The position numbers and the translations under genes are program-made. A DNA stretch of 64,000 nucleotides from a virus: positions 13,675 to 77,674 of IMG/VR virus record IMGVR_UViG_3300042402_005180; one strand, 5' to 3'. The notes beneath the pieces were generated by a model. That model had not been told where the DNA came from. It saw only the letters and a program-made list of their open reading frames with translations, and made no database searches. This document shows positions 34,857 through 59,995 of the stretch, one piece after another; positions within the stretch are counted from its first letter, which is position 1; the number at the start of each line of letters is the position of its first letter.

Positions 34857-37800
34857 AAAAAATTCCTCCCATTGTTGTGCCTGAGCTTTCCTTTCCTCTT
34901 ACTTCAAATAGCCCGGAGTTAAATAAAGCCTTATGTTCTATAGGATATCTTTGATTCCATACATAAGCAGGGCTATAAATTTGTTCATACGATACTCCAA
35001 AACTTTCTTCAGGACTAAATCCTAGAGCCTTCATTGCAGGTTGTGAAGCAGAAGAGTGTGCGTTAATAGCTCCATAGTCTGAAGGTGATTGCGGTTTAAT
35101 CTGATTAATTGTTCTCCAGAGTGAATTATTCCAGTTTGCCCAAATGCCTTGCGCCGAACTTCTATTGATAGAATTAATTTTTTGTTTTTCCATAAAACTA
35201 AAAAAAGATTTATTTACAGGAGGAAGAAAAGCTCTTCTGATAGAATTTCTTATTTCTGTATCTATTTTAAATTTTTCTTTTTGAGAAGTAATTATTCTTT
35301 CAATATTATATCTTGCAAGTTCGCCTCGTTTTTTTGTCCAAGTTGTAAAATTATATGTAGTTTTTATTTCCTCTGAAGAAATGCTAATAGAGATAGTTGT
35401 TATATATGGTCCAGTATCAAAAATTTTATCTGATATATTCCATTTTGGAGTTTCTGAAAATTCTATATATCCTGTTTCTAGTGCATGAATACTTGTTAAT
35501 TCCGCTTGAGCCATTTGTGAAGCAAAAATATTCATATCATCTGTGGAACCAAAAGTTTCTGGTTTTAAACTAGTGTCTGCACTAATATTAACTTTACCTT
35601 TTCTACCTTCTTTTGCATTAATTTCTGAACTACTATCCCATCCACTAAATGCCCACCACGGCCCCCAGACATATCTTGTACTTTTTTGAGGAACAGAAAT
35701 TAAAACAGGCGGCATTTTTGCAGGAGCGATAGATCCATCAAGAATATTTTCTGAGCCAAACATATTTTGATAACCTACTTTTGTCGATTTTCCAATTTCA
35801 CTATCGTCTTGGAAAATAAGTTTGGCAAGAACTCCAAATGCATTTACTTCTGTTGTATATTGATCATATATTTCAACAGATGGAACAGTAACTTTACAAA
35901 ATCCATAAATTTTATTTAAAACTTTATTTCCGGCACTATCAGTCATTAACTGGCCTGATGGAGAAGTTACTGGAAATTTTTGTCCTGCAATTTCTTGATA
36001 TAGTTTTGTAACGTCAACATATCTAATTCCCCAAGCGGTATCAACTGTTGCAGCTCCTAGTATACCTTTTTTTGTTTGATTTGCATTATCTAAATAATCG
36101 ATAATTGTATATTGGCTATTTAAATCTGAATAATCAGCTAATATGCCACCCCAAATAGGATCATAACTATATAAAGGGTAGGCAACAGTGCATTTTAATC
36201 TTCCGGCTCCACCATCATAAAACGAAGTGTCAGTAATATATTTTGTAATATCATTTCCTGCCCATGCAGAATTATCAAGCTCCCAAGCGTATTCCGGTTC
36301 TTGGTCAAGCTCAATCCATCTAAAATTATTTTCAATGCCTCCCGGCTCTGAAGGAACAGCAACTAAAAATTCTTTTCCATAAAAATCATCGGCTATTTTT
36401 TTTATTCCATTATATCTTGTATTTAAAGTTCTTTGCATTATATCTTTTTGTGCGTCTTTTGTTCCAAACATATATGACGCATATAATTCTGCGCTATCTA
36501 AACTTGTATCCATTAAATCGTGAGTTGTTTTATTTCCTTTAAAAACATCTCGAATGTCTTTTAAAGAAAAATTATCAAATCCAGAAATAGTTTTTAATGG
36601 AGTATAATAATTCAATTTTAATTGTAAATCAGTAGGTGCTGCCATCATTAATTTATGATACATATCCCAAGTTTGTCTACTCGATATAGCACATCGCATT
36701 TCAAGTAAATTTGTATCAAACCACAGAAAGTCACCCTCTTTAACAAATGAATTTCTTTGTCCAGTCATATCTAATGCATCAATAACAACTCTAATTGGAC
36801 TGAAAAAATCTAAATATTGATTCATTCCAGTTCCATGATAATAAATTGTATTAATTCCAGCTCCCTTTTTACCCCAAATTGGCAACATATGACCTTGATT
36901 TGCAAACCAATGTCTAGTAGCATTATCTCCAATAATAACTTTTTGAGAAACTAATTCAGTAGTTAGTTCTTTTCCAATTCTATATGATTTTATATTTTTT
37001 GACTCATCAGGAACTTTTAACAAATTAGTTATAATTTTTTTTACTTGATCTGAATCTGATGGTTTTTTTCTTGGCAACATTTTTAATTTTAACGCAGCTT
37101 TTTTCATAACTCCTAGATCATCAGCTATATATCCTTTAGTTTTATCTTCATCAATATAAATGTAATAATCATACATTGTAATTTCTGAAATATCTCTTAA
37201 AAAAGAATTAAAATCAACAAATGTGCTTTTAATTCTATAGTCATTCAATTCTTTTATAGCAGTCGAAAGATCAGAAATGTCAAACTCATATTCTGTTCCA
37301 CCAAAAAATAAATTTCCACCAAAAACGCCTTTTTTACAACAATCAGTAAAATCTTTGACAAAAGTTGATATAGGATAACCTAATGAATTTCGATCTGCTC
37401 CACCAAATTTTCCGCCTTTTCCTATATTTTCTTTATATGCATACAAATTAATCATGTTAACTGGCGTATACCAGTTTTTATCTTCAAAAGCAGATTTTGA
37501 AATATTGTAAAATTCATAATTAATAGATGAGTTATATTGAATAACAGGTTTTGCACTTGGATTAATAATATCATTATCATCAACATAAATTGTACCAATA
37601 AAAGATCCAAGAATAAGAAAAACTCCATCTAAAAATGAAGAAGGAGAATTAAGCTCTACCTCCCATTTTCTTCCAGAAGAAACATCTTCAACATAACTAT
37701 ATCTTTGTACAATTCCAGCATATTTAAAAGTTTGATTAGTATCGTCATCTATAATTTTTAACATGCAACAAGTGCCAATTTCAGGAGGCTGAAAATATAC

Positions 37801-37947
37801 ATCATCTATTTTTTTGCCCGGACGAGAAGGATCGTCTTCTTCTTCTACAAGAGTAATAGAACAAGAAGTATTTTCTCCATTCCATCCAGCACTTATATTT
37901 ACATCTGTAACATACGCACCTAAGAATTTTATTGGTTTTTTTATCAT
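34849..37947 (-). CDS. tail tip/baseplate hub-like protein
   Basis: 1032 aa, downstream of the TMP; function from synteny. Confidence 0.55.
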   Translation of the reverse strand: MIKKPIKFLGAYVTDVNISAGWNGENTSCSITLVEEEDDPSRPGKKIDDVYFQPPEIGTCCMLKIIDDDTNQTFKYAGIVQRYSYVEDVSSGRKWEVELNSPSSFLDGVFLILGSFIGTIYVDDNDIINPSAKPVIQYNSSINYEFYNISKSAFEDKNWYTPVNMINLYAYKENIGKGGKFGGADRNSLGYPISTFVKDFTDCCKKGVFGGNLFFGGTEYEFDISDLSTAIKELNDYRIKSTFVDFNSFLRDISEITMYDYYIYIDEDKTKGYIADDLGVMKKAALKLKMLPRKKPSDSDQVKKIITNLLKVPDESKNIKSYRIGKELTTELVSQKVIIGDNATRHWFANQGHMLPIWGKKGAGINTIYYHGTGMNQYLDFFSPIRVVIDALDMTGQRNSFVKEGDFLWFDTNLLEMRCAISSRQTWDMYHKLMMAAPTDLQLKLNYYTPLKTISGFDNFSLKDIRDVFKGNKTTHDLMDTSLDSAELYASYMFGTKDAQKDIMQRTLNTRYNGIKKIADDFYGKEFLVAVPSEPGGIENNFRWIELDQEPEYAWELDNSAWAGNDITKYITDTSFYDGGAGRLKCTVAYPLYSYDPIWGGILADYSDLNSQYTIIDYLDNANQTKKGILGAATVDTAWGIRYVDVTKLYQEIAGQKFPVTSPSGQLMTDSAGNKVLNKIYGFCKVTVPSVEIYDQYTTEVNAFGVLAKLIFQDDSEIGKSTKVGYQNMFGSENILDGSIAPAKMPPVLISVPQKSTRYVWGPWWAFSGWDSSSEINAKEGRKGKVNISADTSLKPETFGSTDDMNIFASQMAQAELTSIHALETGYIEFSETPKWNISDKIFDTGPYITTISISISSEEIKTTYNFTTWTKKRGELARYNIERIITSQKEKFKIDTEIRNSIRRAFLPPVNKSFFSFMEKQKINSINRSSAQGIWANWNNSLWRTINQIKPQSPSDYGAINAHSSASQPAMKALGFSPEESFGVSYEQIYSPAYVWNQRYPIEHKALFNSGLFEVRGKESSGTTMGGIFYG

Positions 37948-40037
37948 GGCTTAGTAAATATCCATCCTGCTGTAATTGATAATTTTCCCGCAGGCCAATC
38001 CCACGAATAATTTAAATCCGTTAAATAAGCCTGTGTTTTTAATCCGGCATTAAATGTCCCACTTGGTATAAATTTCATAGCTGCTTCAAGAGCATTTGAA
38101 ACAACTGGAGAATTAGGGTGTCTATGTTCAGCCCCATAAATAGCTTCTATTTGAATTGTTCTTTTTGATTCTTTTGTTGTATTCATATCCTGAATTATTG
38201 GCCCTTTATCTCTTCCAAGAATCATAACTGGAATAACATGCTTTGTTCTATATATTGTTGGATTTGAAGAACCAGCAGTAACAAAATTTTCCTGAGATTG
38301 GTTGACACTTACGCTTAAAGCTCCAAAAGATGATCTCAGTGATCGAACAGTCTCAGCAATACCTTTATATGTTGCACTAAATTGTATAGATCCTGCTATT
38401 TTATTTTCAGTAATAGATGTTGTTATTGGTTTCCAGTCAAGAACATTGTCAACAGCATAATAACTAGCATATTGATTATTTCTAAAAATTTCATCAGCAA
38501 AAGCATAAACTATAGTTCCATATGCCCACGGTTTAATGATATTTGTTGTAGAGTATGGAGAGGTAGATAGTTCTTTTCCGGGATCTTTTAATATTCCTGT
38601 TAATTGACTAGTGATTACATTTCCACTTCCAGTTCCATAAATAGAACTTGGATAAATTGGTTGCACAGAGGAGTAAGACTCTGGATCATTAATTCTATCT
38701 GTAGTAGTTGACTGAATAGTAGGATTTGATGTTGATTGATCAATAACACCACTAGATATTAATTTTTTAAATAAAATTTGTGCATTCTTAAATTTATTTT
38801 GTCTATCTGAATTTACACCCAAAGAGTCTAATCCTTGAATTGTACCTTCTACTCTTACAATGTCATCTCCATCTTCACCCTTTTCAAAAGATCCATTTAT
38901 TTCAATAGTTGCAGGATTTCTAGAATAAAAATAATTAGTTGTAATAGAATATGACCCACCAATAATATCAATATTGGATGAGCGAATAACATTATATTCT
39001 CCATATTTTCCTGAACCGTGCATTCCGGCAGCATGTTGCTGTCCGCTTACAGAATCCCAAAAAAGATTACTAACCATTCCACTAGCGCCAACTCTTTCTC
39101 CAAGAGAATTAGTCGTGCCATTCCACCCGTTTATAGTTGAAGCAGCAGTACCTGAAACAGAGTTGCTAACATCCCATCCTACAGGATAAAAAGCATTACT
39201 TCCAACAAAAGGGCGTCCAAGGGGATCAAGATTAATCATTACATTAATCAAACTATCCTTCTTTTTATCATTTACATATTTGTATGCTTCATAAAACGCT
39301 TCATACTTTTGATTAGTTTGAAAATTGCTGGGACTTGGAGCAGGAGATGGAGTAGTATAACCTAAAGTAGTATTATAATCAGTTGCTGATTGATTATAAA
39401 ACATTGTCTGACCCTGTGCAGAAAGTGTATGAGTTATACTATATGAGTAATAAGGATCATCTGCTAAATATCTTATAATACCATTAGCATCTGTGCCCAT
39501 AACAAAATAAGACATTTTGTCTTCTTCTTTTTTAACTTCAAATTGCTCACTCGCAGTTTTTAAACGATACTTAGTTGCAATATTATCAGTGGGAGGTGTA
39601 ATCGACTCAAAGTTGAATGTAACTTCTTGATAATGAATCCCCGCTGTATCTTCAGGAGGCTCTCCAACGGATACACTCATTAACTGAGCAAAGTTATAAG
39701 ATACTAGTGGCTGTCCGACTGTTTGATAATTTCCATTTACAAGAGTCATCTTATATATTTGAAGAGGACCAGATTGTAAACTAACTAGTCTATCTACAAG
39801 CTGCGAGCCTTTAAAATCAGCATATTCTACTGATTTTTGTAACAAATCTTCATATCTATCTTCTGGGGTATTTCCAATAGCGGTAAATGCGCCTCTAATG
39901 GTAATGGAATGCTTTTCGCTTACAATTGTTCCATCGTCAAGTCTATTAAAGTCTTTAGAAATTGCAGACGCAAATCCATATTCCAATATTAACTCTTGTC
40001 CGGCAAATAAAATACTAACTTTATCACTACTTGTCAT
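37944..40037 (-). CDS. tail protein (distal-tail-like)
   Basis: Beta-rich, downstream of the TMP; function from synteny. Confidence 0.5.
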   Translation of the reverse strand: MTSSDKVSILFAGQELILEYGFASAISKDFNRLDDGTIVSEKHSITIRGAFTAIGNTPEDRYEDLLQKSVEYADFKGSQLVDRLVSLQSGPLQIYKMTLVNGNYQTVGQPLVSYNFAQLMSVSVGEPPEDTAGIHYQEVTFNFESITPPTDNIATKYRLKTASEQFEVKKEEDKMSYFVMGTDANGIIRYLADDPYYSYSITHTLSAQGQTMFYNQSATDYNTTLGYTTPSPAPSPSNFQTNQKYEAFYEAYKYVNDKKKDSLINVMINLDPLGRPFVGSNAFYPVGWDVSNSVSGTAASTINGWNGTTNSLGERVGASGMVSNLFWDSVSGQQHAAGMHGSGKYGEYNVIRSSNIDIIGGSYSITTNYFYSRNPATIEINGSFEKGEDGDDIVRVEGTIQGLDSLGVNSDRQNKFKNAQILFKKLISSGVIDQSTSNPTIQSTTTDRINDPESYSSVQPIYPSSIYGTGSGNVITSQLTGILKDPGKELSTSPYSTTNIIKPWAYGTIVYAFADEIFRNNQYASYYAVDNVLDWKPITTSITENKIAGSIQFSATYKGIAETVRSLRSSFGALSVSVNQSQENFVTAGSSNPTIYRTKHVIPVMILGRDKGPIIQDMNTTKESKRTIQIEAIYGAEHRHPNSPVVSNALEAAMKFIPSGTFNAGLKTQAYLTDLNYSWDWPAGKLSITAGWIFTKP

Positions 40038-43000
40038 AATCTTGTCCCACGAACGTAGATTGGTATTGAAGAATTATTTTCCGTTGGATATACTTCTCCA
40101 GAGGTATACAAATTAATTCCACTACTTGCTAAGTATGCGCCCTTTGTAAAAAGATCCAAACCTCCTGAACTATAAGTATTATACACAGTTAATGGCATAC
40201 CGGCTTCTATAATTCTTTTAATAAATAAATTCATTGAACCAGAATTTTCTACCCCATGTAGTATGTCTGATCCAAGCATAGAAAGAGATATTTGACTAAA
40301 AGAAAATCCACTAGGATTATTAACAAATAAATCTAATACGCCGCTATTTTCAGGAAATGGATAATTTATAGTCATATTCATTCCTTGTCCATAGTCATCA
40401 TAGGGGCGAGTTTTTAGACTTAAATTAAACGATCCAGAAGAATTTGGAACTCCTGTGTGATGATTATCAATCATAAGAGATAGGCTAGTAAAGTTATCTT
40501 GAGTTGTGATGGTAGCAAAAGAGTCATTCGTTTCAACTATATTTCCATCTTCGTCCATTTTAAAGTTTGAAAAAGTTTTTACTGTTAGCGGGAAATATCC
40601 ACTAAATATTGGACTTATAACTAATGTTAAACTATCTTCTGCTTTTTGATCACTTATAAATAAACTTAAATTTCCAGTAGTTGTATCAATTTGTTTAGCA
40701 AATAGATTAAGTCCAGAATTATAAAGATCAATTTGCTTTATAAATAAATCTACACCAGTTGGCTTTGGATCATATTCACTAAATGCACTTATTCTAAAAT
40801 ATAATCCAGAATTATTAGGCGATCCCTCAAGAGTTTTTATACTTAATGGTAAAAATTTTCTATCTTGATATGAAGTTGAAATAATTCTTGTATTTGAAAC
40901 TCCATCAAAACCATCAAGGACATCTAGTGAAGTAATAAATCTACCATCAGAAGATCCGGCAAATGAAGAGTCTGAAGGTTGTATTCTTAATATTCCTAAG
41001 TTTGAAGTATTATTACTATTTAAAATTTTATGATGATTTCTACATTTGAATTTTTTGGAAATTCCATCATATGTAAAAAATGCATATTCATAATAATCAC
41101 GTAACACAAGAGCATCATTATAAATATCGTATTTACCATATAAATCAATTAAATAAGTTACACTACTATTAGTTGTTCCATCATATGATAAATTAGAAGT
41201 TGGAGTATACAAATTTTGATTTATATTATTATAATTTCCAATATCAATTGTTGGAGATATTCTATGTGAATAATAATATTTATTAATTCTATGATCAAAT
41301 TCATATACATTTATATAACTTATTGTTTTTGTTGTATTTCCACTATCGTCAATTTTTGACAAAGAGTCTATAACAATAAAATCATTTTCTACAGCAAAAT
41401 AATTTCCAAATCCACTATTTCCAACTGAAGTTATCGTTTGAGATAAATTATAATTTATACCAGATACATCATAAATATACAACTGCTCTTGGCCTCTATA
41501 TGTTGCAGACCACCCAATAAATACTTTATCTTCCGTAGAATCTAAACTCAAGCCATAATTTTGAAGTTCTTTTATTTGATCATTTGCTTTAGTTGAAGTA
41601 TATGTTGTCTGATTAACAATTCCACTCATGTTTGAAAAAGCGTTTGTCTGCAAATCATATTTAAAAACTTTTGATGTTGCATCGACATAATTCATTCTTG
41701 AATTATTAGTAAATCCAGCACTCTTAACATTCGTAGATGCGGTGCAATATATTCCACTATCTATAATATTAAATACTGCACTTTTGCCAAAAGAATCAAC
41801 AAATCCATATTCATTTATATATAGATTTTGTTCAGGCATTTCTATTCCATACACAGGATCATAACTATAATTTTTATTCCAAGAATAGTATCTAGCGCCA
41901 AGCCAATAATTATCAGATGGATTATTAAATATATTTTTTACAGTTATTACATCTATTGGAGAATTTGAAATATTGCCTTCTAGCTTATGAGTTTGATTTG
42001 TTAGTTCATACGAAGACCAAGGATTATTTGAAACTCCTGTAGAGTTTAAATATTCAATATTATATGGAGATTTTGTAATTTTATAAAAATGAACTTTTCC
42101 ATAGGGTAAAAATGTTGGTATAGCAAATTGATTTTCAGGGATTGGAAAAATTTCTTGAGGATTTTGATTTGTTTGTTGTTGTATTATATAATCTTCAAAT
42201 ATTTTGAAAGAAACTTCTGCTCCCGGTTCTGAGACCATAAGAATGTATTCATTATTATTTAATTTTTTTATACGACAATCAGATCCGAATTTATTTCCGT
42301 TATCTAATGTTGTTAGCGCATTCGGATTACTAGCAATTCTTTGATAAGGATAAAAGTTTGTCCAAGAAATCCAGCTATTTAAGCGAGACTGAAGCGTTTG
42401 CAAAGAAGAAGATGGTTCATACTTGTTAGTTTCCACTGCTCTTGAAAGTAGTGTTTGTCCGCTTCCAGATTCGACTACTGTTCTTAGTTGGGGAATAAAG
42501 CCATATCCATTTTTTCCATTTGGAGAATAAAGAGTATGATTATATTTCCATGCAGAGCCACCAATCGCTGTCCACTGAACCCCTGAAGTTGTTAACAATC
42601 CAGATGTATCCATTGGAGAAGTAAATGAGCTATCAAAATAAATATCAAATTTATTTTGATTTATTCCACTTATATATCTAAAACCATTAATATCTGAAAA
42701 TCCAAGACCGCAACTAATTTTTATTCTGTCGCCAGTAGATAGATTGTGTCCAGACGAAGTAATAGTATTTCCACTAGCTTCAGTTACTATTCCCATTTTT
42801 TTTGTATATATATCAACTTTTCCACAAGAAGGATAATTAGCAACTTTAATAACTTCTACTGTATCAAAATATATAGAATTATTTTTAATTAAAAAGATAC
42901 CATATGTTAATGGGTCTAATAGGCTACCGTTATCGCTTGGTTGATTAAATATTTTTTTATATCTAGGAACAATATCAGGAGAATTTGGGTCAGCTAAATC

Positions 43001-44278
43001 TTGACCAGAAAGCGTATTATTTAAAGTCGTTACAGAGTTTACAGTTTGTGGAATTATGTAACTACTTAATGTAACAAATAAATAGTCTCCTGATGTTTCC
43101 CTATAAACAATATACCATTTATAGCCTTCGCTATCTTGCAAAGATTGAATTGTATTCGATGAAAATGGTAAATATGACCTAGTTAAATTTTCAGACCTTG
43201 CTAAATAATCACTTACAGATAAAAATCCACCAAATTTATAAATATATTCTGTTGTATCAGAATTTAATATAACTATATTATCATTAAAAGAAGATGATTT
43301 TGTATAATTTATTTTTAAAAATACATCACTATAATCAGGAAATTCCTGAGATAACCAGTATCCACCTAAAGGAGTATTTGACTCTAGTTCTTCTGTATTT
43401 AATGAATCATTATCATCAGCCTGATGATTATTTAAAAATTCTGGCTTTTGAAAAATATCTACTAAATTTTTAATATTAAAATAAGTTATAGTTTGCTGTA
43501 ATCCAACATCTAATGGAGAAAAGGTATTATAATAGCACTGATCATTTTTTAAATAAGTTCCAGAGCCACAGCCAAGTCCTCCGGGATAATATACAGCCGT
43601 GCCACTAGATGGACCAGATACAGGATCATTAAATTCATCATAATCTCCAGTCAAAGTATAAGTAGGTTGAGCTGTTGAATAAACAACTATTTGATTATTA
43701 TAATAATTATGAGGAACATCAATAGTTAAAGCCTGTTGACCTAAATTATTCTGGTAATTTATTATTACTTGACCATTACCATAATTAGGATGATGAGAGT
43801 CAATTTCAAAAGTCCAGTCTGTTAATGTATATGATGATTGAGAAGATTGACTTGCAGACAATATATCTACATTATATAAATTATCAGAAGTAATCAAAAC
43901 TCCAGAAATATCATATTCAGTAGTAAATTTTTCTGTACTGGTCCAATCTTTTACTCCTATAACTGCTATATCATCCTTCATATCAATCATATCAACATAC
44001 CAATTTGATTGTAAATCATAATTAATATAATTTTTACCATTATTATTTCCGTAATGATAATCATATTTATTTACTGAAAAATCAGTAAGATTAATACTTA
44101 ACTCGTTTAAAGTTGATGAATTTATTAAATCTGGTCCATATATACTAGTGTCCCATGCAGTTTCATGTGGTATGTAATTAGAATTGTCGGCCTGAACTCT
44201 AAGAGGAACATGCCCAAACTGACCACTTCCATTAGACGAGAATATATTTAAATTTAGTCCTTGATTATTATTGTTCAT
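40034..44278 (-). CDS. large tail/adhesin protein with propeller-like repeats
   Basis: FG-GAP-like FG/YG repeats, GHNLSTGDRIKIS beta module, ~15 C-terminal xLxLFxK-type repeats. Confidence 0.6.
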   Translation of the reverse strand: MNNNNQGLNLNIFSSNGSGQFGHVPLRVQADNSNYIPHETAWDTSIYGPDLINSSTLNELSINLTDFSVNKYDYHYGNNNGKNYINYDLQSNWYVDMIDMKDDIAVIGVKDWTSTEKFTTEYDISGVLITSDNLYNVDILSASQSSQSSYTLTDWTFEIDSHHPNYGNGQVIINYQNNLGQQALTIDVPHNYYNNQIVVYSTAQPTYTLTGDYDEFNDPVSGPSSGTAVYYPGGLGCGSGTYLKNDQCYYNTFSPLDVGLQQTITYFNIKNLVDIFQKPEFLNNHQADDNDSLNTEELESNTPLGGYWLSQEFPDYSDVFLKINYTKSSSFNDNIVILNSDTTEYIYKFGGFLSVSDYLARSENLTRSYLPFSSNTIQSLQDSEGYKWYIVYRETSGDYLFVTLSSYIIPQTVNSVTTLNNTLSGQDLADPNSPDIVPRYKKIFNQPSDNGSLLDPLTYGIFLIKNNSIYFDTVEVIKVANYPSCGKVDIYTKKMGIVTEASGNTITSSGHNLSTGDRIKISCGLGFSDINGFRYISGINQNKFDIYFDSSFTSPMDTSGLLTTSGVQWTAIGGSAWKYNHTLYSPNGKNGYGFIPQLRTVVESGSGQTLLSRAVETNKYEPSSSLQTLQSRLNSWISWTNFYPYQRIASNPNALTTLDNGNKFGSDCRIKKLNNNEYILMVSEPGAEVSFKIFEDYIIQQQTNQNPQEIFPIPENQFAIPTFLPYGKVHFYKITKSPYNIEYLNSTGVSNNPWSSYELTNQTHKLEGNISNSPIDVITVKNIFNNPSDNYWLGARYYSWNKNYSYDPVYGIEMPEQNLYINEYGFVDSFGKSAVFNIIDSGIYCTASTNVKSAGFTNNSRMNYVDATSKVFKYDLQTNAFSNMSGIVNQTTYTSTKANDQIKELQNYGLSLDSTEDKVFIGWSATYRGQEQLYIYDVSGINYNLSQTITSVGNSGFGNYFAVENDFIVIDSLSKIDDSGNTTKTISYINVYEFDHRINKYYYSHRISPTIDIGNYNNINQNLYTPTSNLSYDGTTNSSVTYLIDLYGKYDIYNDALVLRDYYEYAFFTYDGISKKFKCRNHHKILNSNNTSNLGILRIQPSDSSFAGSSDGRFITSLDVLDGFDGVSNTRIISTSYQDRKFLPLSIKTLEGSPNNSGLYFRISAFSEYDPKPTGVDLFIKQIDLYNSGLNLFAKQIDTTTGNLSLFISDQKAEDSLTLVISPIFSGYFPLTVKTFSNFKMDEDGNIVETNDSFATITTQDNFTSLSLMIDNHHTGVPNSSGSFNLSLKTRPYDDYGQGMNMTINYPFPENSGVLDLFVNNPSGFSFSQISLSMLGSDILHGVENSGSMNLFIKRIIEAGMPLTVYNTYSSGGLDLFTKGAYLASSGINLYTSGEVYPTENNSSIPIYVRGTRL

Positions 44279-47200
44279 CTCTTCTCTTGCCTATTATTTA
44301 ATTGAATTTGATTTAATACTTCTGTCCTAATTTGACCAATAATAGCATCAGATAATTGTTTAGCAATTTCTGGGCCATTAACTCCAGTTACAGCTATACT
44401 TCCATCAACCGTCATGGTATGCTGAACAGTGATTCCTGCAAATTGATTAGCTAAATTAGCAAGCGTTTCTGTAAAAGACGAAAAAGTAGCAGCAATTGAA
44501 TTAAGTGATTCAACACTCTGGGCGAATCCTGTCATATCAGGAGGCATTGCTCCAGCTCCAGCCGCACCCGGATTGACTGCTGCGTTGGCTTGCTGTGCCG
44601 GAGTCGTAGCCATTGACTGACGCTGCTGCTGTGCCATAGACTGAGAAATCATAGTTTTTTGCTGAACAATCGGACCGCTTACTTTACTACTTCCAGAAGA
44701 TTGAACTTTTTTAGGATTCAAAAATCCTTCCATTTTTCTAGTATTTATTGATCTTTGCTTTAACCACTCTTCTGCTTTTTGCATATAAGCTATTTTAGGA
44801 TCTCGTCCTCTTTTTGCAATTTCATCAGCTTGTTTTTGATCTTCTGCTTTTGCTTCCTTAATCGCTTGTTCTTTTGCTTTTCTATATTCCCTCATATCCA
44901 TAATATCATTAATATTTTTTCCTTCTTTATTTTTATATACTCCTTGTTCAATTTGCTTTCTTACCTCATCAAGACGAGAACGTATATTTCCACTTCTTCT
45001 AGATGGTAAACCAAGCTGGTCAATGTTACCACCATTTGCATAATATCCAGCATTTATTTTTTGTAAATTTCCAGCTCCAAACTTATCAACTGCTCTTTTA
45101 TTTACAACAAATTCGCCGGGAGTAAGCATGGCTGGAACAGTGTCTGTGCCACGAGGAGTAAAACCGCCGCCAGCACGATAGATTAAACCACCTGTAGATT
45201 TTTTTTCTGTTCCGTCAAATTTATCTTTAACTTGTTGAAACATATTATCAATTCTTTGAAGAAACTTCTCAATGCTCTGATCTATCGTTGCAATATCGCT
45301 ATCTATTTTTGTTAATCTTGCTTCTGCCGCTTTCTTTTGAGCTTGTAAGGCTTCTGGAGTTTCAAGATTTTGTGGACCACCAGCCGGTCTAAGTTCTGCT
45401 GCTTTTTCTTGAGTTTCTTTAACTAAATTATTTAACGATTGAGTATTCATTTGAATAGATTGATTCAACATATCCTGATGTAACATTTCTTCTAGAAGCA
45501 TAGCTCTTCTAGCTTTTTCTTCTTGGGCATAGATATTTCCTAGCTCTTGAATCATTTGCTGCTCAGGACCGGAAGTATCATTAGCAATTGCCATTGCTCC
45601 TTCAACATTCCCCATTTGCATCATCTTGTTTGCCATAAGTTGATTTTGAACTTCTTTTCCTGTCATTCCACCAAATGCTTTAACATCTTTAAATTGATCA
45701 AGCAAGCCACTTACACCAGATTTTAATTCATCCGGAATAGATTCAATATCACCACTCTGCATGGCATCTCTAAGAGCAACCATAATATCTTCTTGTTTAT
45801 CTTTTTCTTCTCTTGTTCCAAATAAATAACTTTTCGTAGCATCTCTTGCAGTTTCTCTTTGAGCTTTTAATTTTTCAAGTTCAAATAGAGTATCAGCAGT
45901 TCTAGAACTTTGATTTGATAACTCTTTTAACGACTGTTTTAATTTTGTAGATTCTTCTAGTAATCCAGCCTTTTTACCTATATCTGTTTCTTTAGCTAGA
46001 CTAGTTCTAATATCTCTTAATCTTTTTCCAATTGCTTCTGGGTTTCCAGCATATTTTCCAGCTAACATATTTTGACGATTAGTTCTTAATGCATTTTTTT
46101 CTGTTAATGTTAGAATTTTACCCTGAGCATTTGCAACATTCTTTACTAATTCTTGAAAACTGTCAGCACCTTCTAGTTCAATATCAAGCTGTCTTTTTCT
46201 TGATTGTGCAATTTCATCATACGCCTTGGTAATAGATGCCTCATGATCCTGCATTGCCTTTAAAATTCTTCCGCCACCTTCTTGAAGAATCTTTGCATAG
46301 TTTTCTATATTATCTTGAATTCTTTTTGCTATTTCAGCGCCACTAGAAACGCCTTCTCTTGGAGTAATTTCAGAAGATTTTGTTTCTTTTTCGATTGATT
46401 CTCTAATTGCTTTTCCAACATCTGTTCCGCCATCTATTCCAATAGATTGAATAAAACTATCAATTTCTTTAGAGCTTGCTCCAACTCTTAATGTATTTTT
46501 TTCTAAACCAACTTTTAATTTTGGCATAACTCCATTTAGTTGATTAAATTTATCTGCTAATTCTTTGCCAATAGGACCAACACTGGAAATTGTATCCATA
46601 GCTTTTTTGAAATCAGGAGAATTGGCAGCATTAGGAGCTGATAAACTTAACACATCAGCATTCGGCACGCTCGAAGAAAATGCACTTAATGAGTCACCAA
46701 ACATTGCTCCCGCATTGACAATTGAATCATTTGCCTTTTTAATACTATATTCAAAATTTTCCAATCCAATAGATAAAGCTAATTGATCAGCTAAAGTTCC
46801 AATTAATTTTTTTCTAATTGCTTCTTCTTCGGCAAGAGCTTGTTTTTGTTTAATAATTTGAATAGCAGCTTCTGTTGCAGACTTTTCTAACTCTAGTTCG
46901 CCTTTCTCTGCTCTTTTTTCATTAAGTCCGCCTTTGCCAAAAGTTAAGGATTGAATCTGCTTACCCATAAATTGAGCAAAATCACCCTTTGGGGTTCCAG
47001 CTTTACCAGCGCCTCTTAATAGATCTTCTATTTTTGCTCCATACTGACTTTTTGTTTCCGCTGTTGTTCTTTTGCTTATATTTTCTTTTTGACTTTCAAC
47101 AATTTTACTAATTTCTCCACCAACATCAACACCCTTTGTTCCAATTTTATTACCTAACTGAGTTATTTGCCTTGCATATTCAGCGCCAATAATTTGATCA

Positions 47201-50200
47201 AGAGCTTTGCCAAATTCATCTGCTTTTTCTTTTGCTTGTTTTATTTGATCACCAAATAATTTCTGTGCTTCTACTAAAGAGCCAGCAGCATTCATATACT
47301 TTAATTCAGCATTAGTAGCTGCATCTAAAGATTGAACAAACTTAGTTGTACTAGCTGCCGCCTGATCTGAAACTTGTTTATCGGTTTTTTTATCAATAGA
47401 ACCCATGAACTTTTGAAGTTTTTGAGTTTCTTCAGCAGAAGTTTTAAAACTAACTGCTAGACTAGCACTTGCTGCATTTAAATCATCAAGCATTTGTTTT
47501 TGTTTAGCTTCAGCTCTAGCAACTTGATCTTGATATTGTAAATACGCGCCTCCAAAAGCGCCAGCAGTAGCCCCTATACCAGCTCCGACTAAAGTTCCTC
47601 CGGGAACTCCTGTAGCAGTTCCAGCTACACCACCTACTTTTCCGCCTATTATTCCTCCTCCTATAGCAGCTCCAAGAATTTTCATAATAGATTTTGAATC
47701 TGATCCAATTTTACCCATCAAAGATGCTTTGGCTTTATCTGAAGACGCTTGAGATATATCTGATGTTAGTTTTCCTGTAGAAACTTTGCTAGCATCTTTA
47801 AACAATGCATCAATCGTTTCATTCATTTTCTTAGCTGATTTTTCAGAAACTTCAGCGTAATAAGCAGCATTAGCTGCCGCAATTGCCATTACAGCAGAGA
47901 ATCCAGTTATAATACCGTCAAAAATAACCATGCCCTTATCTAGTTTGCTTATTGTTCCACCAATTCCAGAACCTCCTGCTGTAGATCCAGCCTTACTGCC
48001 TACTGATCCAGATTTTATCTGTGTAGCAGCTTGATTTGCTGCATTAGCATGATTCTTCATTGCAGCGGCACTTTGAGCTAATGCTAATTTTTCCTGTTTA
48101 CGTTGTTGCATTGTTTCAATAATACCTAATCCAAAATTCTTTAAATTTTGTCCAATGCCTTGGTAAACAGTAAATGTAGCAGTTAAAGCACCATAATAAG
48201 CCTTTTGTTCATCTGAAAGAGTAGTAAATTGAGTGACAACACTTCCAATTGCACTACCTAACAAGAGAAGATTTTGAATATTTGTTTGCGAAGCCTTTTG
48301 TAATTGTTGTTCCTGATTATTTGAAGTATTAGAAGCTGCTTCTTTATAAGTAGCTTTGAGTTCTTTACTAATTTTAAAATTAGCTGCATCTTTTTTAATT
48401 TCGGCAAAACCTTCTTTAATTAATTTAGAACTATCTAGACCAGCTTTATTTAAAGCCTCAACCATCTTTATAAATGTTTGAATTTGCTTATTACCACTGC
48501 CTAATGCTGCTCCAGATGCTGTTGGTCCTTGGGTAAGAGCTTGTCTGCTCATTTTTCTAATTTCAACAAGCATTTTTAAGGTAGCTGGATCAACTGTTCC
48601 TCCAGTTGCAAAATATTGAACTCCAACGGGTCCACCATTAGCAAACTTTCCAACCTTATTCATTCTATTTAAAGATGAATATCCAATTGCTTGAGCAGAT
48701 TGTTTATTAATTACAAATTCGCCCGGAGTTAGCATAGCGGGAACGGTGTCGGTTCCACTAGTCTTTCCTCCAGTTGCAAAATTTTTAATTGAAGCGAGAA
48801 CGGCTTCTCTTCCTTCATAAGAAGGTCCAAATTTCTTTTTTGCTCTAATAATATTTTTATTATCTGATGATGGTTTTTGGTAGGCGTATTGTAATGCCCA
48901 ATCTGGATCTTCTTTTTTAGGCCAAGTTAATTTAAGTTTTTCTATATCCTTTTCTGGTTTAGTTTGAAATTTACCTGATGCATTATTCCAATTATTATAG
49001 TCCATTAATTTTTTATTAACGTCCTGCCTATTCAAATAATAATTTTTCCAGACTCCAGCGGCATTTTTTGAGATATTTGTGTCGGGAGCAACCCAAGAAC
49101 CAATTTTTGCTGCCTCTTCTAATAACGCATCGTATAGTTTAGGTCCATATCCTGAAGTTGCATAAGAAAACTTCACTCGATAAAAATTATCTTTATTTTT
49201 TTTAGCTTCTACAAAACCAGTTCTATCATTTTCTCCATCGACATATCTAGCTAATATATCATTTTTACCTGAAAATATTTCTATATTACCATAATTTTTG
49301 TTTTTACTAAAGTCATGTCCTGTAATTTGGCTAAGTTTAATTTTATCTTGTTTTCCAAGATAAGAAACTAAATCCGATATTCCTGAATCGTAATATTTAA
49401 AAATATTTTTTATTTCATCGTTAATTTCAAATTTATCTTTAAATTTATTTTTTAAATCTTCATCTTTCAGCTTAGATAATCCATAAGCAGCTATAAATGA
49501 TTTTGTAGAACTATTTCTATCCTTACTATTACTTTTTTGTATTAATCCCAATTCTCTATATTTAGATAAACTCTCTGCAAAATTAGGAGATAGATTAGCA
49601 GTCTTAATAAAATTACTTTGTAATTCATCATCTCTGTGTTTTGATAACACACTATCAAGAGATTCTTTATTATTAGGTTTATAGTGGCTCTGCTGATCAA
49701 CTTCTCCGCCAATCGCTAAATGTTGAACTCCTACTGCGCCACCATTAGCAAATTTAGCAACTTTATTCATACGATGCAAATTGCTATAACCAATCTTTTG
49801 AGCTGATTGTTTATTAATAACGAATTCGCCCGGAGTAAGCATGGCTGGAACAGTATCAGTACCACTAGCAAATCCTCCGCTAGCAAATCTAGAAACTCTA
49901 TCTGCACGTGGCCCTTTTTGTCTTAATGCATCAAGTGCTGGCTGTTTTGTTTTTCCTTCTGTAAAAACCATATTTGAAACTGGAATACCAAATACACTAG
50001 ATAAGTATTCGGCAAGACCGGGAGTTCTGCCAGACTTACTAATAATCTGCATTTTACGAGGATTAATTTGACCACTTTCAACAGCGTCTTTTAATGCTTT
50101 TCCAAACTGTGTCAAGGGCGCTGATTTTACATCTGCTAATCTTGCAGCATCATCTCTAAAATATCTTTTAAGAACTTCTGCCTGAGCTTTTTTTGTAGGG

Positions 50201-52974
50201 GCTTTTGCGTATGCCTGATCACCAATTGTTCTTTTTAGCGTGCGATCCATATCAACTGCGCCGCCACCAGCATCAATGATTGCCTGAATAGCCTTTACTG
50301 GATGGGGCAAAATGGCTCCTGTAGCCTGTAGAATATCATCAACAAGAGGGGCGTTTTTTACACCACCACCTTCTGCAAAACGAGACACTATTCCGCCAAG
50401 AGCTGATTTTAATAAACTTACAGGAGGAGATCCTTCCCGCCATTTCTTTAGTTGGTCTAATACTTTTTTTTGTTCGGCTTCACTTAAAGAAAAATCATTT
50501 TTACCAAATTTTCCTTTCATATCTGGTCCTAAAATACCTTTAACTAAATCAGTAGCACCAGCTCCAAAATTTTGTAGATTTAATCTACTTGCTTGTAAGC
50601 CAGTATTAGGATCTTTAGCAAAATTAAAATATTCGCCTGCAATCTCAACTATTTTTTTTCTAAATTCCTCTGATTGCGCTTGCATTCCTTTTAGGCTAGA
50701 TTGTTTAACTTGGGCTTGTTGTTTTTTTGCTACGGCCTTGCTTGATTCAATCTTAACTCCTGCGCCGGTTTGATCATACTTTGTAAGTCCAATTTGGCTT
50801 CGATCTTGTAATAAAGAGTTTGCAATTTTTGTTCCTAAAACGCTTCGTATAGCTTTATCTGATATAGATCTTTTGGCGTCTCCACTAATTAAAGAAGAAA
50901 TTAAACCTGCTTTATCTAATCCAAACAGTTGCGATAATTTTTCTCCTTTACCACCCAAACTAGGAAAGTCCCAATTTGAAGTTCCTCCGCCTAATTTAAC
51001 TTGGCCTAGAGAAGCTGTAACTGCTTCTAGAACGTAACCTTCGATTGTAGCTTTGGCGCTATTATCTTTTTCAAAAAGAGATTTAATTGCACTATTAAAA
51101 TATGACTGATCTGTTTTTAAAGGTGGACTTCCAAGACTAAAATCAGGAGTTTCTATAATTGTAGAAATTATTTTTTTAAATCCCGCCTTAGTAACTTTTT
51201 CAATTCTTTTTTTCATTGCCTGAGATTTTTCAGCATCATTTCCACCAATATAAAATGCTGGAACTTGATAAGTATCGTCTGCTGCAATTTCAACAGAAGC
51301 GTCTGGGTTTTTTGCCATAGCTGCTAATTGAGCTTCTACGCTTTTATTTTTTACTTTAGCTTTTCCTCTTAAAATATCATCTTTAGCTCCAAGTGGTTGA
51401 AGAGCAAATACTCCATATTTATTTGATTTTGGAAAAATAGTAACCCTTCCTCCAGCAGCATATTTATTCATTCTCGCAAGATTTTCCGCTCCTAATTTTT
51501 CAACAGAACTCTTGCGTATTACAAATTCGCCCGGAGTAAGCATCGCCGGAACAGTATCTCCATTTCCTTGTCCGGGAACCATTCCACCGCTAGCAAATCC
51601 AATAGGTCCGCCAAGAGACTTCTTGCCAATAGAACCTAAACCTTTAATTGCAGGAATAAAAGCCTGACCTAATTTAAAGGTTGCAAAAGTAGCAATAAGT
51701 GGAATAAGAGGTTTTATTGTATCTGCAACTTTTATAAAGGCATTTGCTAAACTTAATAAAAATCTTGCAGTATCTTGAAACGATTTACTATCTGTCAATT
51801 CTCTTATAAATCTCTTAAACTCTTCACGAGTTTTATCTATTTGAACTGATAGTGATTGCTGTGCAGTTGCGGCGTCTTTTGCTAGTGAGCCACTCGCGCC
51901 TTGAGCAGAGCTAAGAGCTTTTTGTGCAACTGTAAACTGTTGAATAAGAGGAATAACTTTTGAAACTTGACGGAATCCACCAAGCTCTTCAACTACAAGA
52001 TTAAATCTAAAATCTCTTGGATCTATAGTTTGTAAAGCAATTGCTAGCCTTTTAGCGGCTTCCATTGGACCGACAAATTTTCCCTCTGCATCTTGAAGTT
52101 CTATACCAAGATTTCTAAGTGCATTTATAGTGTCAACACGCTGAACACGAGTAAAAATTGTTCTAAATCCTGTAGCGATACTTTCTGCTGATTCACGAGT
52201 CGTAGAGCGTACAGATGTAAACAGTGCAATTAGTTCATCTAAACTACCACCAGCGCTTTCAAACGCAGAACCAGTTGTTCTAATTGCTGTAATTAAGTCC
52301 GCCGATTCAACAGCGAAATCTTTAGAAACTTGATTAATAGCAGATAAAGATTTTTCTAAGAAATCTATTTCTGTTCCTGCTCTTTGGGCAGTTTTACCAA
52401 ACTGATTAAGAACAGCGATAACGCCTTCTGTTGTGTCTTGAATTGAATCGAAGGTAGCAGCTAATTCTGTTTGTGCTAATAGCTTTAATGTTCCTCTAAC
52501 TTTATCAGCGGCAAATCCGGCTTGTGTTAATTCTCTTGCTGCTAAAACTAACTCTTTAGAAGATACTCCAAAATTTGAAGCTACATTTCCAATTTCACTA
52601 GACAAGGATTTTAAATCGCTCATTGTTTTCCCAGTAGCCTGAGAAATTTTCACCATTTCTCTTTCAAATTCAATTGCTTCGCCAACTGCATTTTTAATAG
52701 CTCTAGTTAAACCAATAAGAGTTCCCGTTGCAAGTGCCATGCCTGAAAATCTTTTAGCGGCGGCTAAAACACTACTACCCAAAGAGTCAACAGACTTTTT
52801 TGCTGCGGCACTATTTTTAGACAAGTTAACCATTTGAGAGTTAGCCTGAGCTAAATTCGTAAGTTTTATATTTAGGTTGGCCCCTTGAAACTGCTGCCTT
52901 AGATTGTTAACGACCTGATTTAAATTTTTAGTTTGTAAGTTTAATTCAGCAGTAATGGTAAACTTTGAAGCCAT
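44275..52974 (-). CDS. tape measure protein (TP901-type core) with internal cargo domains
   Basis: 2899 aa; AIEFEREMVKISQATG...TP901-like core; Ala/Gly-rich helical body; 4x DTVPAMLTPGEFV. Confidence 0.9.
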   Translation of the reverse strand: MASKFTITAELNLQTKNLNQVVNNLRQQFQGANLNIKLTNLAQANSQMVNLSKNSAAAKKSVDSLGSSVLAAAKRFSGMALATGTLIGLTRAIKNAVGEAIEFEREMVKISQATGKTMSDLKSLSSEIGNVASNFGVSSKELVLAARELTQAGFAADKVRGTLKLLAQTELAATFDSIQDTTEGVIAVLNQFGKTAQRAGTEIDFLEKSLSAINQVSKDFAVESADLITAIRTTGSAFESAGGSLDELIALFTSVRSTTRESAESIATGFRTIFTRVQRVDTINALRNLGIELQDAEGKFVGPMEAAKRLAIALQTIDPRDFRFNLVVEELGGFRQVSKVIPLIQQFTVAQKALSSAQGASGSLAKDAATAQQSLSVQIDKTREEFKRFIRELTDSKSFQDTARFLLSLANAFIKVADTIKPLIPLIATFATFKLGQAFIPAIKGLGSIGKKSLGGPIGFASGGMVPGQGNGDTVPAMLTPGEFVIRKSSVEKLGAENLARMNKYAAGGRVTIFPKSNKYGVFALQPLGAKDDILRGKAKVKNKSVEAQLAAMAKNPDASVEIAADDTYQVPAFYIGGNDAEKSQAMKKRIEKVTKAGFKKIISTIIETPDFSLGSPPLKTDQSYFNSAIKSLFEKDNSAKATIEGYVLEAVTASLGQVKLGGGTSNWDFPSLGGKGEKLSQLFGLDKAGLISSLISGDAKRSISDKAIRSVLGTKIANSLLQDRSQIGLTKYDQTGAGVKIESSKAVAKKQQAQVKQSSLKGMQAQSEEFRKKIVEIAGEYFNFAKDPNTGLQASRLNLQNFGAGATDLVKGILGPDMKGKFGKNDFSLSEAEQKKVLDQLKKWREGSPPVSLLKSALGGIVSRFAEGGGVKNAPLVDDILQATGAILPHPVKAIQAIIDAGGGAVDMDRTLKRTIGDQAYAKAPTKKAQAEVLKRYFRDDAARLADVKSAPLTQFGKALKDAVESGQINPRKMQIISKSGRTPGLAEYLSSVFGIPVSNMVFTEGKTKQPALDALRQKGPRADRVSRFASGGFASGTDTVPAMLTPGEFVINKQSAQKIGYSNLHRMNKVAKFANGGAVGVQHLAIGGEVDQQSHYKPNNKESLDSVLSKHRDDELQSNFIKTANLSPNFAESLSKYRELGLIQKSNSKDRNSSTKSFIAAYGLSKLKDEDLKNKFKDKFEINDEIKNIFKYYDSGISDLVSYLGKQDKIKLSQITGHDFSKNKNYGNIEIFSGKNDILARYVDGENDRTGFVEAKKNKDNFYRVKFSYATSGYGPKLYDALLEEAAKIGSWVAPDTNISKNAAGVWKNYYLNRQDVNKKLMDYNNWNNASGKFQTKPEKDIEKLKLTWPKKEDPDWALQYAYQKPSSDNKNIIRAKKKFGPSYEGREAVLASIKNFATGGKTSGTDTVPAMLTPGEFVINKQSAQAIGYSSLNRMNKVGKFANGGPVGVQYFATGGTVDPATLKMLVEIRKMSRQALTQGPTASGAALGSGNKQIQTFIKMVEALNKAGLDSSKLIKEGFAEIKKDAANFKISKELKATYKEAASNTSNNQEQQLQKASQTNIQNLLLLGSAIGSVVTQFTTLSDEQKAYYGALTATFTVYQGIGQNLKNFGLGIIETMQQRKQEKLALAQSAAAMKNHANAANQAATQIKSGSVGSKAGSTAGGSGIGGTISKLDKGMVIFDGIITGFSAVMAIAAANAAYYAEVSEKSAKKMNETIDALFKDASKVSTGKLTSDISQASSDKAKASLMGKIGSDSKSIMKILGAAIGGGIIGGKVGGVAGTATGVPGGTLVGAGIGATAGAFGGAYLQYQDQVARAEAKQKQMLDDLNAASASLAVSFKTSAEETQKLQKFMGSIDKKTDKQVSDQAAASTTKFVQSLDAATNAELKYMNAAGSLVEAQKLFGDQIKQAKEKADEFGKALDQIIGAEYARQITQLGNKIGTKGVDVGGEISKIVESQKENISKRTTAETKSQYGAKIEDLLRGAGKAGTPKGDFAQFMGKQIQSLTFGKGGLNEKRAEKGELELEKSATEAAIQIIKQKQALAEEEAIRKKLIGTLADQLALSIGLENFEYSIKKANDSIVNAGAMFGDSLSAFSSSVPNADVLSLSAPNAANSPDFKKAMDTISSVGPIGKELADKFNQLNGVMPKLKVGLEKNTLRVGASSKEIDSFIQSIGIDGGTDVGKAIRESIEKETKSSEITPREGVSSGAEIAKRIQDNIENYAKILQEGGGRILKAMQDHEASITKAYDEIAQSRKRQLDIELEGADSFQELVKNVANAQGKILTLTEKNALRTNRQNMLAGKYAGNPEAIGKRLRDIRTSLAKETDIGKKAGLLEESTKLKQSLKELSNQSSRTADTLFELEKLKAQRETARDATKSYLFGTREEKDKQEDIMVALRDAMQSGDIESIPDELKSGVSGLLDQFKDVKAFGGMTGKEVQNQLMANKMMQMGNVEGAMAIANDTSGPEQQMIQELGNIYAQEEKARRAMLLEEMLHQDMLNQSIQMNTQSLNNLVKETQEKAAELRPAGGPQNLETPEALQAQKKAAEARLTKIDSDIATIDQSIEKFLQRIDNMFQQVKDKFDGTEKKSTGGLIYRAGGGFTPRGTDTVPAMLTPGEFVVNKRAVDKFGAGNLQKINAGYYANGGNIDQLGLPSRRSGNIRSRLDEVRKQIEQGVYKNKEGKNINDIMDMREYRKAKEQAIKEAKAEDQKQADEIAKRGRDPKIAYMQKAEEWLKQRSINTRKMEGFLNPKKVQSSGSSKVSGPIVQQKTMISQSMAQQQRQSMATTPAQQANAAVNPGAAGAGAMPPDMTGFAQSVESLNSIAATFSSFTETLANLANQFAGITVQHTMTVDGSIAVTGVNGPEIAKQLSDAIIGQIRTEVLNQIQLNNRQEKR
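45028..45198 (-). repeat. TMP module copy 4 (STGG..RAGGG..GTDTVPAMLTPGEFVV...YANGG)
   Basis: C-terminal copy, in the usual TMP position. Confidence 0.9.
48598..48780 (-). repeat. TMP module copy 3 (FATGG...GTDTVPAMLTPGEFVINKQSAQ...FANGG..FATGG)
   Basis: Direct repeat of copy 2. Confidence 0.9.
49705..49888 (-). repeat. TMP module copy 2 (FASGG...GTDTVPAMLTPGEFVINKQSAQ...FANGG..LAIGG)
   Basis: Near-identical to copy 3 at protein level and similar at DNA level. Confidence 0.9.
51449..51597 (-). repeat. TMP module copy 1 (FASGG...DTVPAMLTPGEFV...YAAGG)
   Basis: Read directly from the translation. Confidence 0.9.
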
Positions 52975-59620: not shown

Positions 59621-59995
59621 TTAATATTCCTCTATTGCATTTAAGATAAAATCTGCCGACATAATTAGAGGTAATTCATAGTTTAAATCTGTATCTACAT
59701 AAAAGTCTGCATAGAAGTCGGAAGTGTGGTAAACTATCTCAAGATCTTCCGTATTCAGTAGCATAATATTATTTTTATTTGTAGTAACATACATAATATG
59801 ATACACATTTATTTGCCTTACCGGATCTAAACTCCCAATAAAATTTGAAAAACAATCAAATTGAATTGATTCGTAGAATTTTATAGCTGGAGAGAGTTCT
59901 AAATTTATGTCTGAGCTAAATAAAGCAAAGGCGTAAATTGGCCCAGAAGCTAATGATGAATAGGGAGTTGTTGATAGTGGTAGGAATGATAACAT
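59621..59995 (-). CDS. hypothetical virion protein
   Basis: MLSFLPLSTTPYSS N-terminus; coupled ORF. Confidence 0.55.
   Translation of the reverse strand: MLSFLPLSTTPYSSLASGPIYAFALFSSDINLELSPAIKFYESIQFDCFSNFIGSLDPVRQINVYHIMYVTTNKNNIMLLNTEDLEIVYHTSDFYADFYVDTDLNYELPLIMSADFILNAIEEY

Follow-up and report, generated by a model that had tools for sequence, protein, structure and literature searches.

The window analyzed here, 64,000 nucleotides (nt) long, comprises positions 13,675 to 77,674 of IMG/VR virus record IMGVR_UViG_3300042402_005180, a viral contig of 77.7 kb with an estimated completeness of 52%. On its minus strand, an open reading frame (ORF) of 2899 amino acids (aa) runs unbroken across 8.7 kb, and it is this protein (P0001), together with a short module repeated within it, that we describe. 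By its family matches, the ORF is a TP901-type tape measure protein (TMP): the N-terminal core matches PF10145 PhageMin_Tail (E 9e-19; 68.6 bits versus a cutoff of 33.2) and TIGR01760 tape_meas_TP901 (E 3e-27; 95.4 bits versus a cutoff of 28.8), and the ORF also matches TMP PHROGs 4211, 28, and 1533. Searches of Pfam, PHROGs, and NCBIfam with each segment of the protein, with the TMPs of 11 relatives, and with 11 giant TMPs detected the TMP core only, and a megablast search with the TMP gene against 50,697 phage records gave no match.

From the N to the C terminus, the protein is laid out as a core, module 1, segment A, an FAEGG junction, segment B, module 2, a linker with a putative GNAT-fold domain (together segment C, aa 1093 to 1395), module 3, a ruler of ~1100 aa, module 4, a variable stretch, and a conserved C terminus. 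The features, in window coordinates, are as follows.

44275 to 52974, minus strand: TMP ORF (P0001, 2899 aa), a single open frame
51610 to 52974, minus strand: N-terminal TP901-type TMP core (aa 1 to 455), with the PF10145 and TIGR01760 matches and, at its end, a hydrophobic stretch immediately upstream of module 1
51439 to 51609, minus strand: module 1 (aa 456 to 512; aa 457 to 512 as delimited by hidden Markov model [HMM]); AlphaFold2 (AF2) predicted local distance difference test score (pLDDT) of 63 to 80
50380 to 51438, minus strand: segment A (aa 513 to 865), with a conserved core at aa 639 to 720 (50815 to 51060)
50365 to 50379, minus strand: bare FAEGG junction (aa 866 to 870), within SALGG...FAEGG (aa 857 to 870, 50365 to 50406)
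49900 to 50364, minus strand: segment B (aa 871 to 1025), putative HAD-like half-domain with VDMDRTL (DxDxT) and IISKS, lacking motif IV
~49699 to 49899, minus strand: module 2 (aa 1026 to 1082 by HMM; to 1092 with a tail that holds a third AxGG, LAIGG)
49330 to 49698, minus strand: K/N/D-rich linker (aa 1093 to 1215), G+C content 0.25, with protein P0002 as its sole homologue
48850 to 49302, minus strand: probable GNAT-fold domain (aa ~1225 to 1375), with an SGYGP loop and an S..A..VW..Y helix
~48592 to 48792, minus strand: module 3 (aa 1395 to 1451 by HMM; to 1461 with its tail)
45187 to 48591, minus strand: helical and hydrophobic ruler body (aa 1462 to 2596), with three transmembrane-like Gly-zipper stretches (aa 1569 to 1587, 1680 to 1706, and 1766 to 1784)
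45019 to 45186, minus strand: module 4 (aa 2597 to 2652), delimited by HMM
44278 to 45018, minus strand: C-terminal region, variable at aa 2653 to 2800 and conserved among relatives at aa ~2801 to 2899

From its position and by analogy with gpH residues 818 to 849 (PMC12617516) and residues 1658 to 1699 of the Douge TMP (PMC13033339), the conserved stretch at aa ~2801 to 2899 may be a hub-binding plug.

A gpH-type module is present four times

The exact string DTVPAMLTPGEFV occurs at four places in the TMP (aa 473, 1040, 1409, and 2611), each time within a module of ~55 aa whose limits we set with an HMM built from the four copies. The plan of the module is FAxGG, a spacer of 3 to 9 aa, DTVPAMLTPGEFV, ~20 aa, N, and FAxGG again, with a third AxGG eleven residues further on in modules 2 and 3. 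FAxGG is conserved across the modules, and the residue that follows GG is variable. Motifs of the form [FYW][AS]xGG number nine in the TMP versus a mean of 0.26 and a maximum of 3 among 1000 shuffles of the protein. The AF2 model of module 1 is a beta-hairpin (VPAML/EFV) with two helices (pLDDT 63 to 80), and no model in a Pfam scan covers the module.

At the DNA level, modules 2 and 3 share 77% identity across 193 nt. They encode the same residue at 51 of 67 codons and use a different codon at 21 of those 51, which indicates that the copies are held by selection on the protein. Judged by these synonymous changes, the module copies are shown to be old and each to be under purifying selection.

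An HMM of the window copies finds one copy in lambda gpH, at residues 732 to 785 (E 1e-10), with FAxGG, P-A, GEFV, K, G, and FAxGG all in place. Only two TMPs among the PDB sequences matched the module profile: gpH (8iyk_H, residues 730 to 785, E 3e-23) and TMP gp16 of mycobacteriophage Douge (8zdo; two stretches, the best at 1411 to 1459). Both solved tails that contain the module, lambda 8iyk and Douge 8zdo, leave it unresolved; in lambda only gpH residues 818 to 849 are visible, bound to gpI (PMC12617516), and of the Douge TMP residues 1658 to 1699 only are resolved (PMC13033339). The gpH copy lies downstream of, and outside, Pfam Tape_meas_lam_C (gpH 627 to 701). Single copies are also found in Gordonia phage TMPs and in TMP-position virion proteins of T4-like cyanophages (cyanomyoviruses), in one of which the module lies 55 aa upstream of a glucosaminidase domain, and many TMP PHROGs have the module near the C terminus.

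An earlier note on this DNA had described the ORF as a TMP carrying four modules of ~50 aa and a bare ALGG/FAEGG junction at ~50366 to 50406, and had placed one such motif in lambda gpH. All of this was borne out: the TMP by the Pfam, TIGR, and PHROG matches, the four modules by the four DTVPAMLTPGEFV copies at coordinates that agree within ~10 to 30 nt, the junction at 50365 to 50406, and the lambda copy at gpH 732 to 785.

Module borders and segment exchange in related TMPs

Thirteen IMG/VR loci encode TMPs that share the N-terminal core of the window TMP at 39 to 85% identity. All 13 have modules, with one to five clear copies in 12 of them and two weak matches only in the other (L014). Their usual layout is a core, a module, a segment of ~300 aa, a module, a body of ~1040 to 1180 aa, a module, and further segments. 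A tail sheath was sought in four relatives and none was found; the phages are thus probably siphoviruses.

More distant proteins came from an exhaustive HMMER search with segment C, which yielded 181 homologues, 72 of them of at least 1000 aa. Modules are present on one or more sites in 61 of these 72 (one to eight copies); the proteins reach 7122 aa, and the giants share the N-terminal core of the window TMP (E down to ~1e-98). Multi-module TMPs therefore form a large clade, and the window TMP is no isolated case. The distance from the end of the GNAT-like domain to the next module has a median of 23 aa and is at most 60 aa in 42 of 58 cases.

Neither BLAST nor profile HMMs matched segment B or C in any TMP of the 13 relatives, the closest ones (L002 to L006, core identity 70 to 85%) included, and the domains of these segments are found in distant TMPs at other positions. 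Compared with the TMP of L004, the window protein has an insertion that opens directly behind FAEGG and extends as far as FATGG in module 3. In the alignment with relatives, this FAEGG pairs with the leading FAxGG of their module 2. In each of its four homologues, segment B follows a GG without a gap. Modules and bare FAxGG motifs thus lie at domain borders. These alignments show the HAD-like and GNAT-like pieces to be accessory inserts with borders exactly at GG motifs.

The clean evidence for breakpoints comes from two pairs of proteins with long stretches of identity. The window TMP and P0002 are 99 to 100% identical over aa 1 to 1450; from the last residues of module 3 onward, identity is ~27%, with one internal patch of high identity. 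Module 4 is an island of 94% identity between unrelated flanks, and the last ~100 aa are ~90% identical. P0031 and P0033 are 98.9% identical up to aa 1640, 9 aa beyond a module. A breakpoint scan by the ends of high-scoring segment pairs missed the key pair. As read from these alignments, conserved modules are shown to coincide with points at which flanking segments have been exchanged between related phages; that the modules act as swap points, as had been proposed, is supported by the mosaic breakpoints of near-identical TMPs at module edges.

The segments between the modules

Segment C begins with 123 aa of helical linker, modeled by AF2 at low confidence, and continues with a domain (aa ~1225 to 1375) whose AF2 fold is confident (pLDDT >90; 63-row alignment). 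The predicted fold contains the GNAT core, beta4-alpha3-beta5-alpha4-beta6, and Foldseek finds a weak agreement with GNAT; the matches in BFVD are uncharacterised phage proteins and NAT_SF proteins. The sequence T-S-G-Y-G-P stands at the beta4-alpha3 junction, the position of GNAT motif A (the Q/R-x-x-G-x-G/A loop), and G183, G185, and P186 are invariant or nearly so among 63 homologues; the S..A..VW..Y helix is at the position of motif B. No Pfam Acetyltransf_* model matched the window domain or nine free-standing homologues, and neither the family profile nor a phmmer search with the cargo region found anything among PDB sequences. For segment C, the ESM Atlas pointed weakly to viral and acetyltransferase proteins, with PF00583 in 13% of one cluster. 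Taking the predicted fold and the loop residues together, we consider it very likely that aa ~1225 to 1375 form a GNAT-fold domain.

The GNAT-like domain also occurs as ~60 free-standing phage proteins. Outside TMPs, P0154 to P0160, from several sources, form a tight cluster of 632 to 638 aa; P0055 (288 aa), which may be a gene fragment, has the GNAT-like domain and one module. Segment C gave no hits in a word-index search for homologues of near length or in a back-translated pattern scan of IMG/VR. A foreign origin of segment C, sought in its composition, was rejected: its G+C content is 0.25 to 0.31, but at third codon positions it is 0.13 to 0.17, close to the 0.18 to 0.19 of the flanks, so that the low G+C content is mainly driven by amino acids.

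Segment B was modeled by AF2 with confidence over ~110 aa (pLDDT 76 to 94). HAD motif I, DxDx(T/V), is present at the end of beta1 as VDMDRTL. Only four homologues were found, all within TMPs, and DxDxTL and the downstream S are conserved in all four. Segment B aligns with positions 15 to 112 of a 230-aa domain of giant TMPs (hhalign probability 93%, E 3e-7), which runs on to a K and an LIDD motif. An ESM Atlas search with segment B found nothing. The segment appears to be the N-terminal half of a HAD-like domain, with weak fold support; as it aligns to half of the fuller domain and has no motif IV, the window copy is probably inactive or decayed.

Giant TMPs, among them P0021, P0006, and P0032 (alignments A6 and A7), have more conserved inserts that are absent from Pfam, including a HAD-like domain that is complete (DFDxT ... 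LIDD) and a segment with a P-loop (G-x-A-G-S-G-K). Alignment A7 has the HAD-like domain followed directly by an E...D...ExK core. A possible pairing of kinase and phosphatase in giant TMPs would recall, by analogy, T4 Pnk.

Segment A has a core of ~80 aa with near-invariant G, E, D, and D-x-K, present in the window as G..E, WDFP, and GDAK (E...D...DxK). Across 12 aligned sequences, G43, E47, D66, and D96 show little or no variation, and the residue after D96 is usually K; the equivalent in giant TMPs reads IDFP...PTEVK. The order of these residues agrees with the PD-(D/E)xK nuclease superfamily. Segment A matched nothing in Pfam, PHROG, or NCBIfam, nor did its profile match PDB sequences. At the level of motifs, segment A is possibly PD-(D/E)xK nuclease-like, an assignment that we make tentatively. 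Besides the window TMP, 12 of the 13 relatives (all except L011) contain this core, and so do many giant TMPs, where it often lies directly upstream of the GNAT-like domain; being family-wide, it belongs to the family core and is not swappable cargo. A small protein, P0049 (350 aa), unites the E...D...DxK core (aa 14 to 67) with the GNAT-like domain (aa 75 to 252). A 153-aa ORF antisense within the TMP gene (50312 to 50773, plus strand) is most likely spurious.

The earlier note had seen three nonhelical segments with enzyme-like cargo. The lengths stand (~350, 155, and 303 aa); "nonhelical" is only partly right, because the third segment opens with the K/N-rich linker of 123 aa, which is helical at low confidence. 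As for enzymes, the GNAT fold was sustained, the HAD-like piece turned out to be a truncated half-domain with weak fold support, and the nuclease is a motif without a fold call. Of the structural checks that the note had suggested, Foldseek on the AF2 model gave the weak agreement above for the GNAT-like domain, and AF2 modeling gave no fold call for segment A (pLDDT <50). Variation of cargo among relatives, another of them, was found for the HAD-like and GNAT-like inserts and not for the nuclease-like segment, which nearly all relatives have.

Interpretation of the modules and inserts

On balance, we favor the following explanation. In a TP901-type TMP, a gpH-type unit of ~55 aa would have been multiplied from one copy, as in lambda, to four, and the copies with their FAxGG edges would serve as fixed junctions between independently evolving parts. 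The inserts would ride in the tail lumen with the TMP and be ejected immediately before the DNA, into the envelope or the cytoplasm of the host, there to act early; TMPs leave ahead of the DNA and form an envelope channel (PMC12617516, PMC13033339). The most likely active cargo would be the predicted GNAT-fold acyltransferase, which may modify a host protein or defence factor.

Several points weigh against this explanation. The presence of the inserts in the virion, their ejection, and their activity are inferred. Three to six copies of a folded globular domain of 150 aa would fit poorly into the lumen of the tail tube, so that unfolded carriage or another location would be required. None of the cargo domains scores above threshold in searches of Pfam, PHROG, NCBIfam, or PDB sequences; AF2 gave pLDDT <50 throughout segment A (14-row alignment) and hence no fold call, and segment B lacks HAD motif III (K) and has no motif IV (acidic DD/GDxxxD) ahead of the next FAxGG. 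The prevalence figures for modules in large proteins are biased, since that set was picked through the GNAT-like domain. In a wider windowed scan, 49% of sharp identity transitions fall within 20 aa of a module versus 8.6% at random, a difference inflated by the modules being conserved islands themselves.

Alternatively, the module could serve the tail machine structurally or functionally and be no junction signal, either docking to the lumen, the hub, or a chaperone or engaging the membrane as a hairpin. Extra copies would then park or thread each added segment, and recombination at modules would be a by-product of their conservation. We regard this as rather unlikely, even with a module conserved from lambda to actinophage TMPs and cyanomyovirus TMP-position proteins and placed near the C terminus in many ordinary TMP PHROGs. 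A hydrophobic or Gly-rich stretch precedes it both in lambda and at module 1, AF2 predicts a small folded hairpin-helix unit, and modules flank the ruler body at both ends, in most relatives as in the window, all of which this alternative would accommodate. It leaves the bare FAxGG at module-less borders unexplained, however; the module has no known binding partner and is not resolved in lambda 8iyk or Douge 8zdo (PMC12617516).

A true polyprotein, in which a phage or host protease cuts at FAxGG and frees the GNAT-, HAD-, and nuclease-like pieces at assembly or after ejection, is unlikely in our judgment. It draws on the FAxGG motifs that stand beside every module and insert border (nine versus 0.26 expected) and that are conserved while the residue after GG varies. 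Several protease families likewise recognize double-glycine sites that have no fixed residue after GG. JAB enzymes typically cleave after Gly-Gly, and lambda tail-tip gpK bears an NlpC/P60 match and a partial Prok-JAB peptidase domain. As annotated (gene K, lambda 14276 to 14875, 199 aa; L018), gpK matches only the last third of Prok-JAB, so that the annotated start probably cuts off part of a JAB domain. Within the lambda tail tip, gpK is a candidate protein for processing directed at Gly-Gly, a lead that concerns lambda only. Lambda gpH is cleaved nearby: a cut after FATGG-737 would give a fragment of 80.1 kDa, and gpH* is reported at ~78 to 79 kDa (PMC12617516). The mass cannot separate residue 710 from residue 737, however, and the published estimate of the cleavage position is ~690 to 710, in a Gly-rich stretch upstream of the module (PMC12617516).

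For the window TMP, we find no support for the candidate cleavage at FAxGG/AxGG in the sequences searched. Models of six protease families (C39, C48, Prok-JAB, NlpC/P60, S78, and ClpP) had no match in the contig, nor did Prok-JAB and S78 in four relatives, including a 100%-complete genome of 155 kb; the genomes are mostly dark, which makes this absence weak evidence. There is no HExxH motif in the window TMP, and conservation extends over the whole 55-aa module, beyond the need of a cleavage site. A broader proposal, which we think quite unlikely, would make the gpH-type module, together with the double glycines at its edges, a processing and docking signal universal to TMPs. Its multiplication would yield an injected polyprotein (up to 8 modules and 7122 aa in relatives) that frees Pfam-dark effectors (GNAT-fold, HAD-like, PD-(D/E)xK-like, and P-loop) before phage gene expression, and lambda gpH would be cut after FATGG-737.

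Another reading takes the inserts for decayed or noncatalytic spacers, which would only make the ruler longer or bulkier and have no part as effectors. It would suit a HAD-like copy that is truncated and lacks motif IV, the low-confidence folding of segment A and the linker, and the absence of matches above family thresholds. This reading is very unlikely, given that the GNAT-like domain retains a large set of invariant residues throughout giant TMPs, the G-x-G loop among them, and exists as ~60 free-standing phage proteins and that segment A has near-invariant E/D/DxK residues. Finally, an assembly or gene-calling artefact (a chimeric contig or fused ORFs), conceivable for a contig of metagenomic origin and 52% completeness, is refuted by the unbroken 8.7-kb frame, the 99 to 100% identity of the independent protein P0002 over aa 1 to 1450, and the multi-module layout common to the 13 IMG/VR relatives and dozens of giants.

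Surroundings of the TMP gene

The genes neighboring the TMP gene have almost no family matches. Directly downstream, at 34849 to 44278 (minus strand), are three large ORFs (1414, 697, and 1032 aa) with no Pfam or PHROG match; presumably, they encode tail tip, hub, or fibre proteins of a type not yet described. Weak tail-fibre and collar matches, the only ones among the neighbors, were found at 59995 to 63197 (minus strand), where a 381-aa ORF has an N terminus like that of T4-type tail fibre proteins and a subthreshold DUF6242 match, and a 685-aa ORF has a weak Phage Tail Collar match. Two gene blocks meet convergently at 31438 to 31568: plus-strand genes end at 31438, minus-strand genes begin at 31568, and the GC skew changes sign.

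Relation to known systems and significance

Lambda gpH resembles the window TMP in its homologous module, with a hydrophobic or Gly-rich stretch before it and a hub-binding C terminus after it, and gpH is cut near the module region into gpH* and gpHC (PMC12617516). Unlike the window TMP, it has a single copy and no inserted globular domains, and its N-terminal core belongs to another Pfam family, TMP_2. Douge TMP gp16 (1699 aa) carries the module as well, but no inserts have been described in it. In polymorphic toxins, short demarcation motifs (VENN in CdiA and PxxxxDPxGL in Rhs) bound the variable domain and give homology for cassette exchange. A conserved short motif at the border of a variable domain is common to both systems, an analogy of logic only; the toxins are another class of protein, with a single C-terminal toxin and no sequence relation to the TMP.

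Enzyme domains inside the ruler and delivered on ejection are known from TMPs such as those of TM4 (an Rpf-like motif), T5 (pb2, a C-terminal peptidase), and SPbeta (YomI, a transglycosylase) (PMC1796659; PMC12617516). Those enzymes are cell-wall hydrolases, whereas the window TMP has no detectable lysin, and its inserts are GNAT-fold, HAD-like, and PD-(D/E)xK-motif segments delimited by modules. Polyvalent proteins, too, are giant, multidomain, and DNA accompanying, with unrelated enzymatic domains that include GNATs (Iyer et al. 2017, PMC5512222). They are delivered from the head or by type IV secretion systems and often have a zincin peptidase; neither such a peptidase nor a delimiter repeat of that type is seen in the window TMP. 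Measured against them, the window TMP has one confident enzyme fold, the predicted GNAT, and two candidates at the level of motifs, and its delivery would be by inference. Tape measure proteins are not mentioned in that survey, in which "tape" has 0 occurrences (PMC5512222). We found no description in the literature of repeated gpH-type modules, giant multi-module TMPs, a TMP polyprotein, or polyvalent TMPs. Embedded lysins in TMPs (PMC1796659) and injected polyvalent proteins (PMC5512222) are already known.

TMPs are known to measure the tail, to form a channel through the envelope, and sometimes to carry a lysin. In the large uncharacterised clade to which the window TMP belongs, the ruler is also a modular carrier of exchangeable, enzyme-like, database-dark domains. 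These findings bear on old questions about lambda, namely the place and mechanism of gpH cleavage and the role of region 732 to 785. If the inserts are delivered, the tail lumen would be a second route, besides the capsid, for premade phage effectors, and the junctions would provide a natural grammar for effector swapping.

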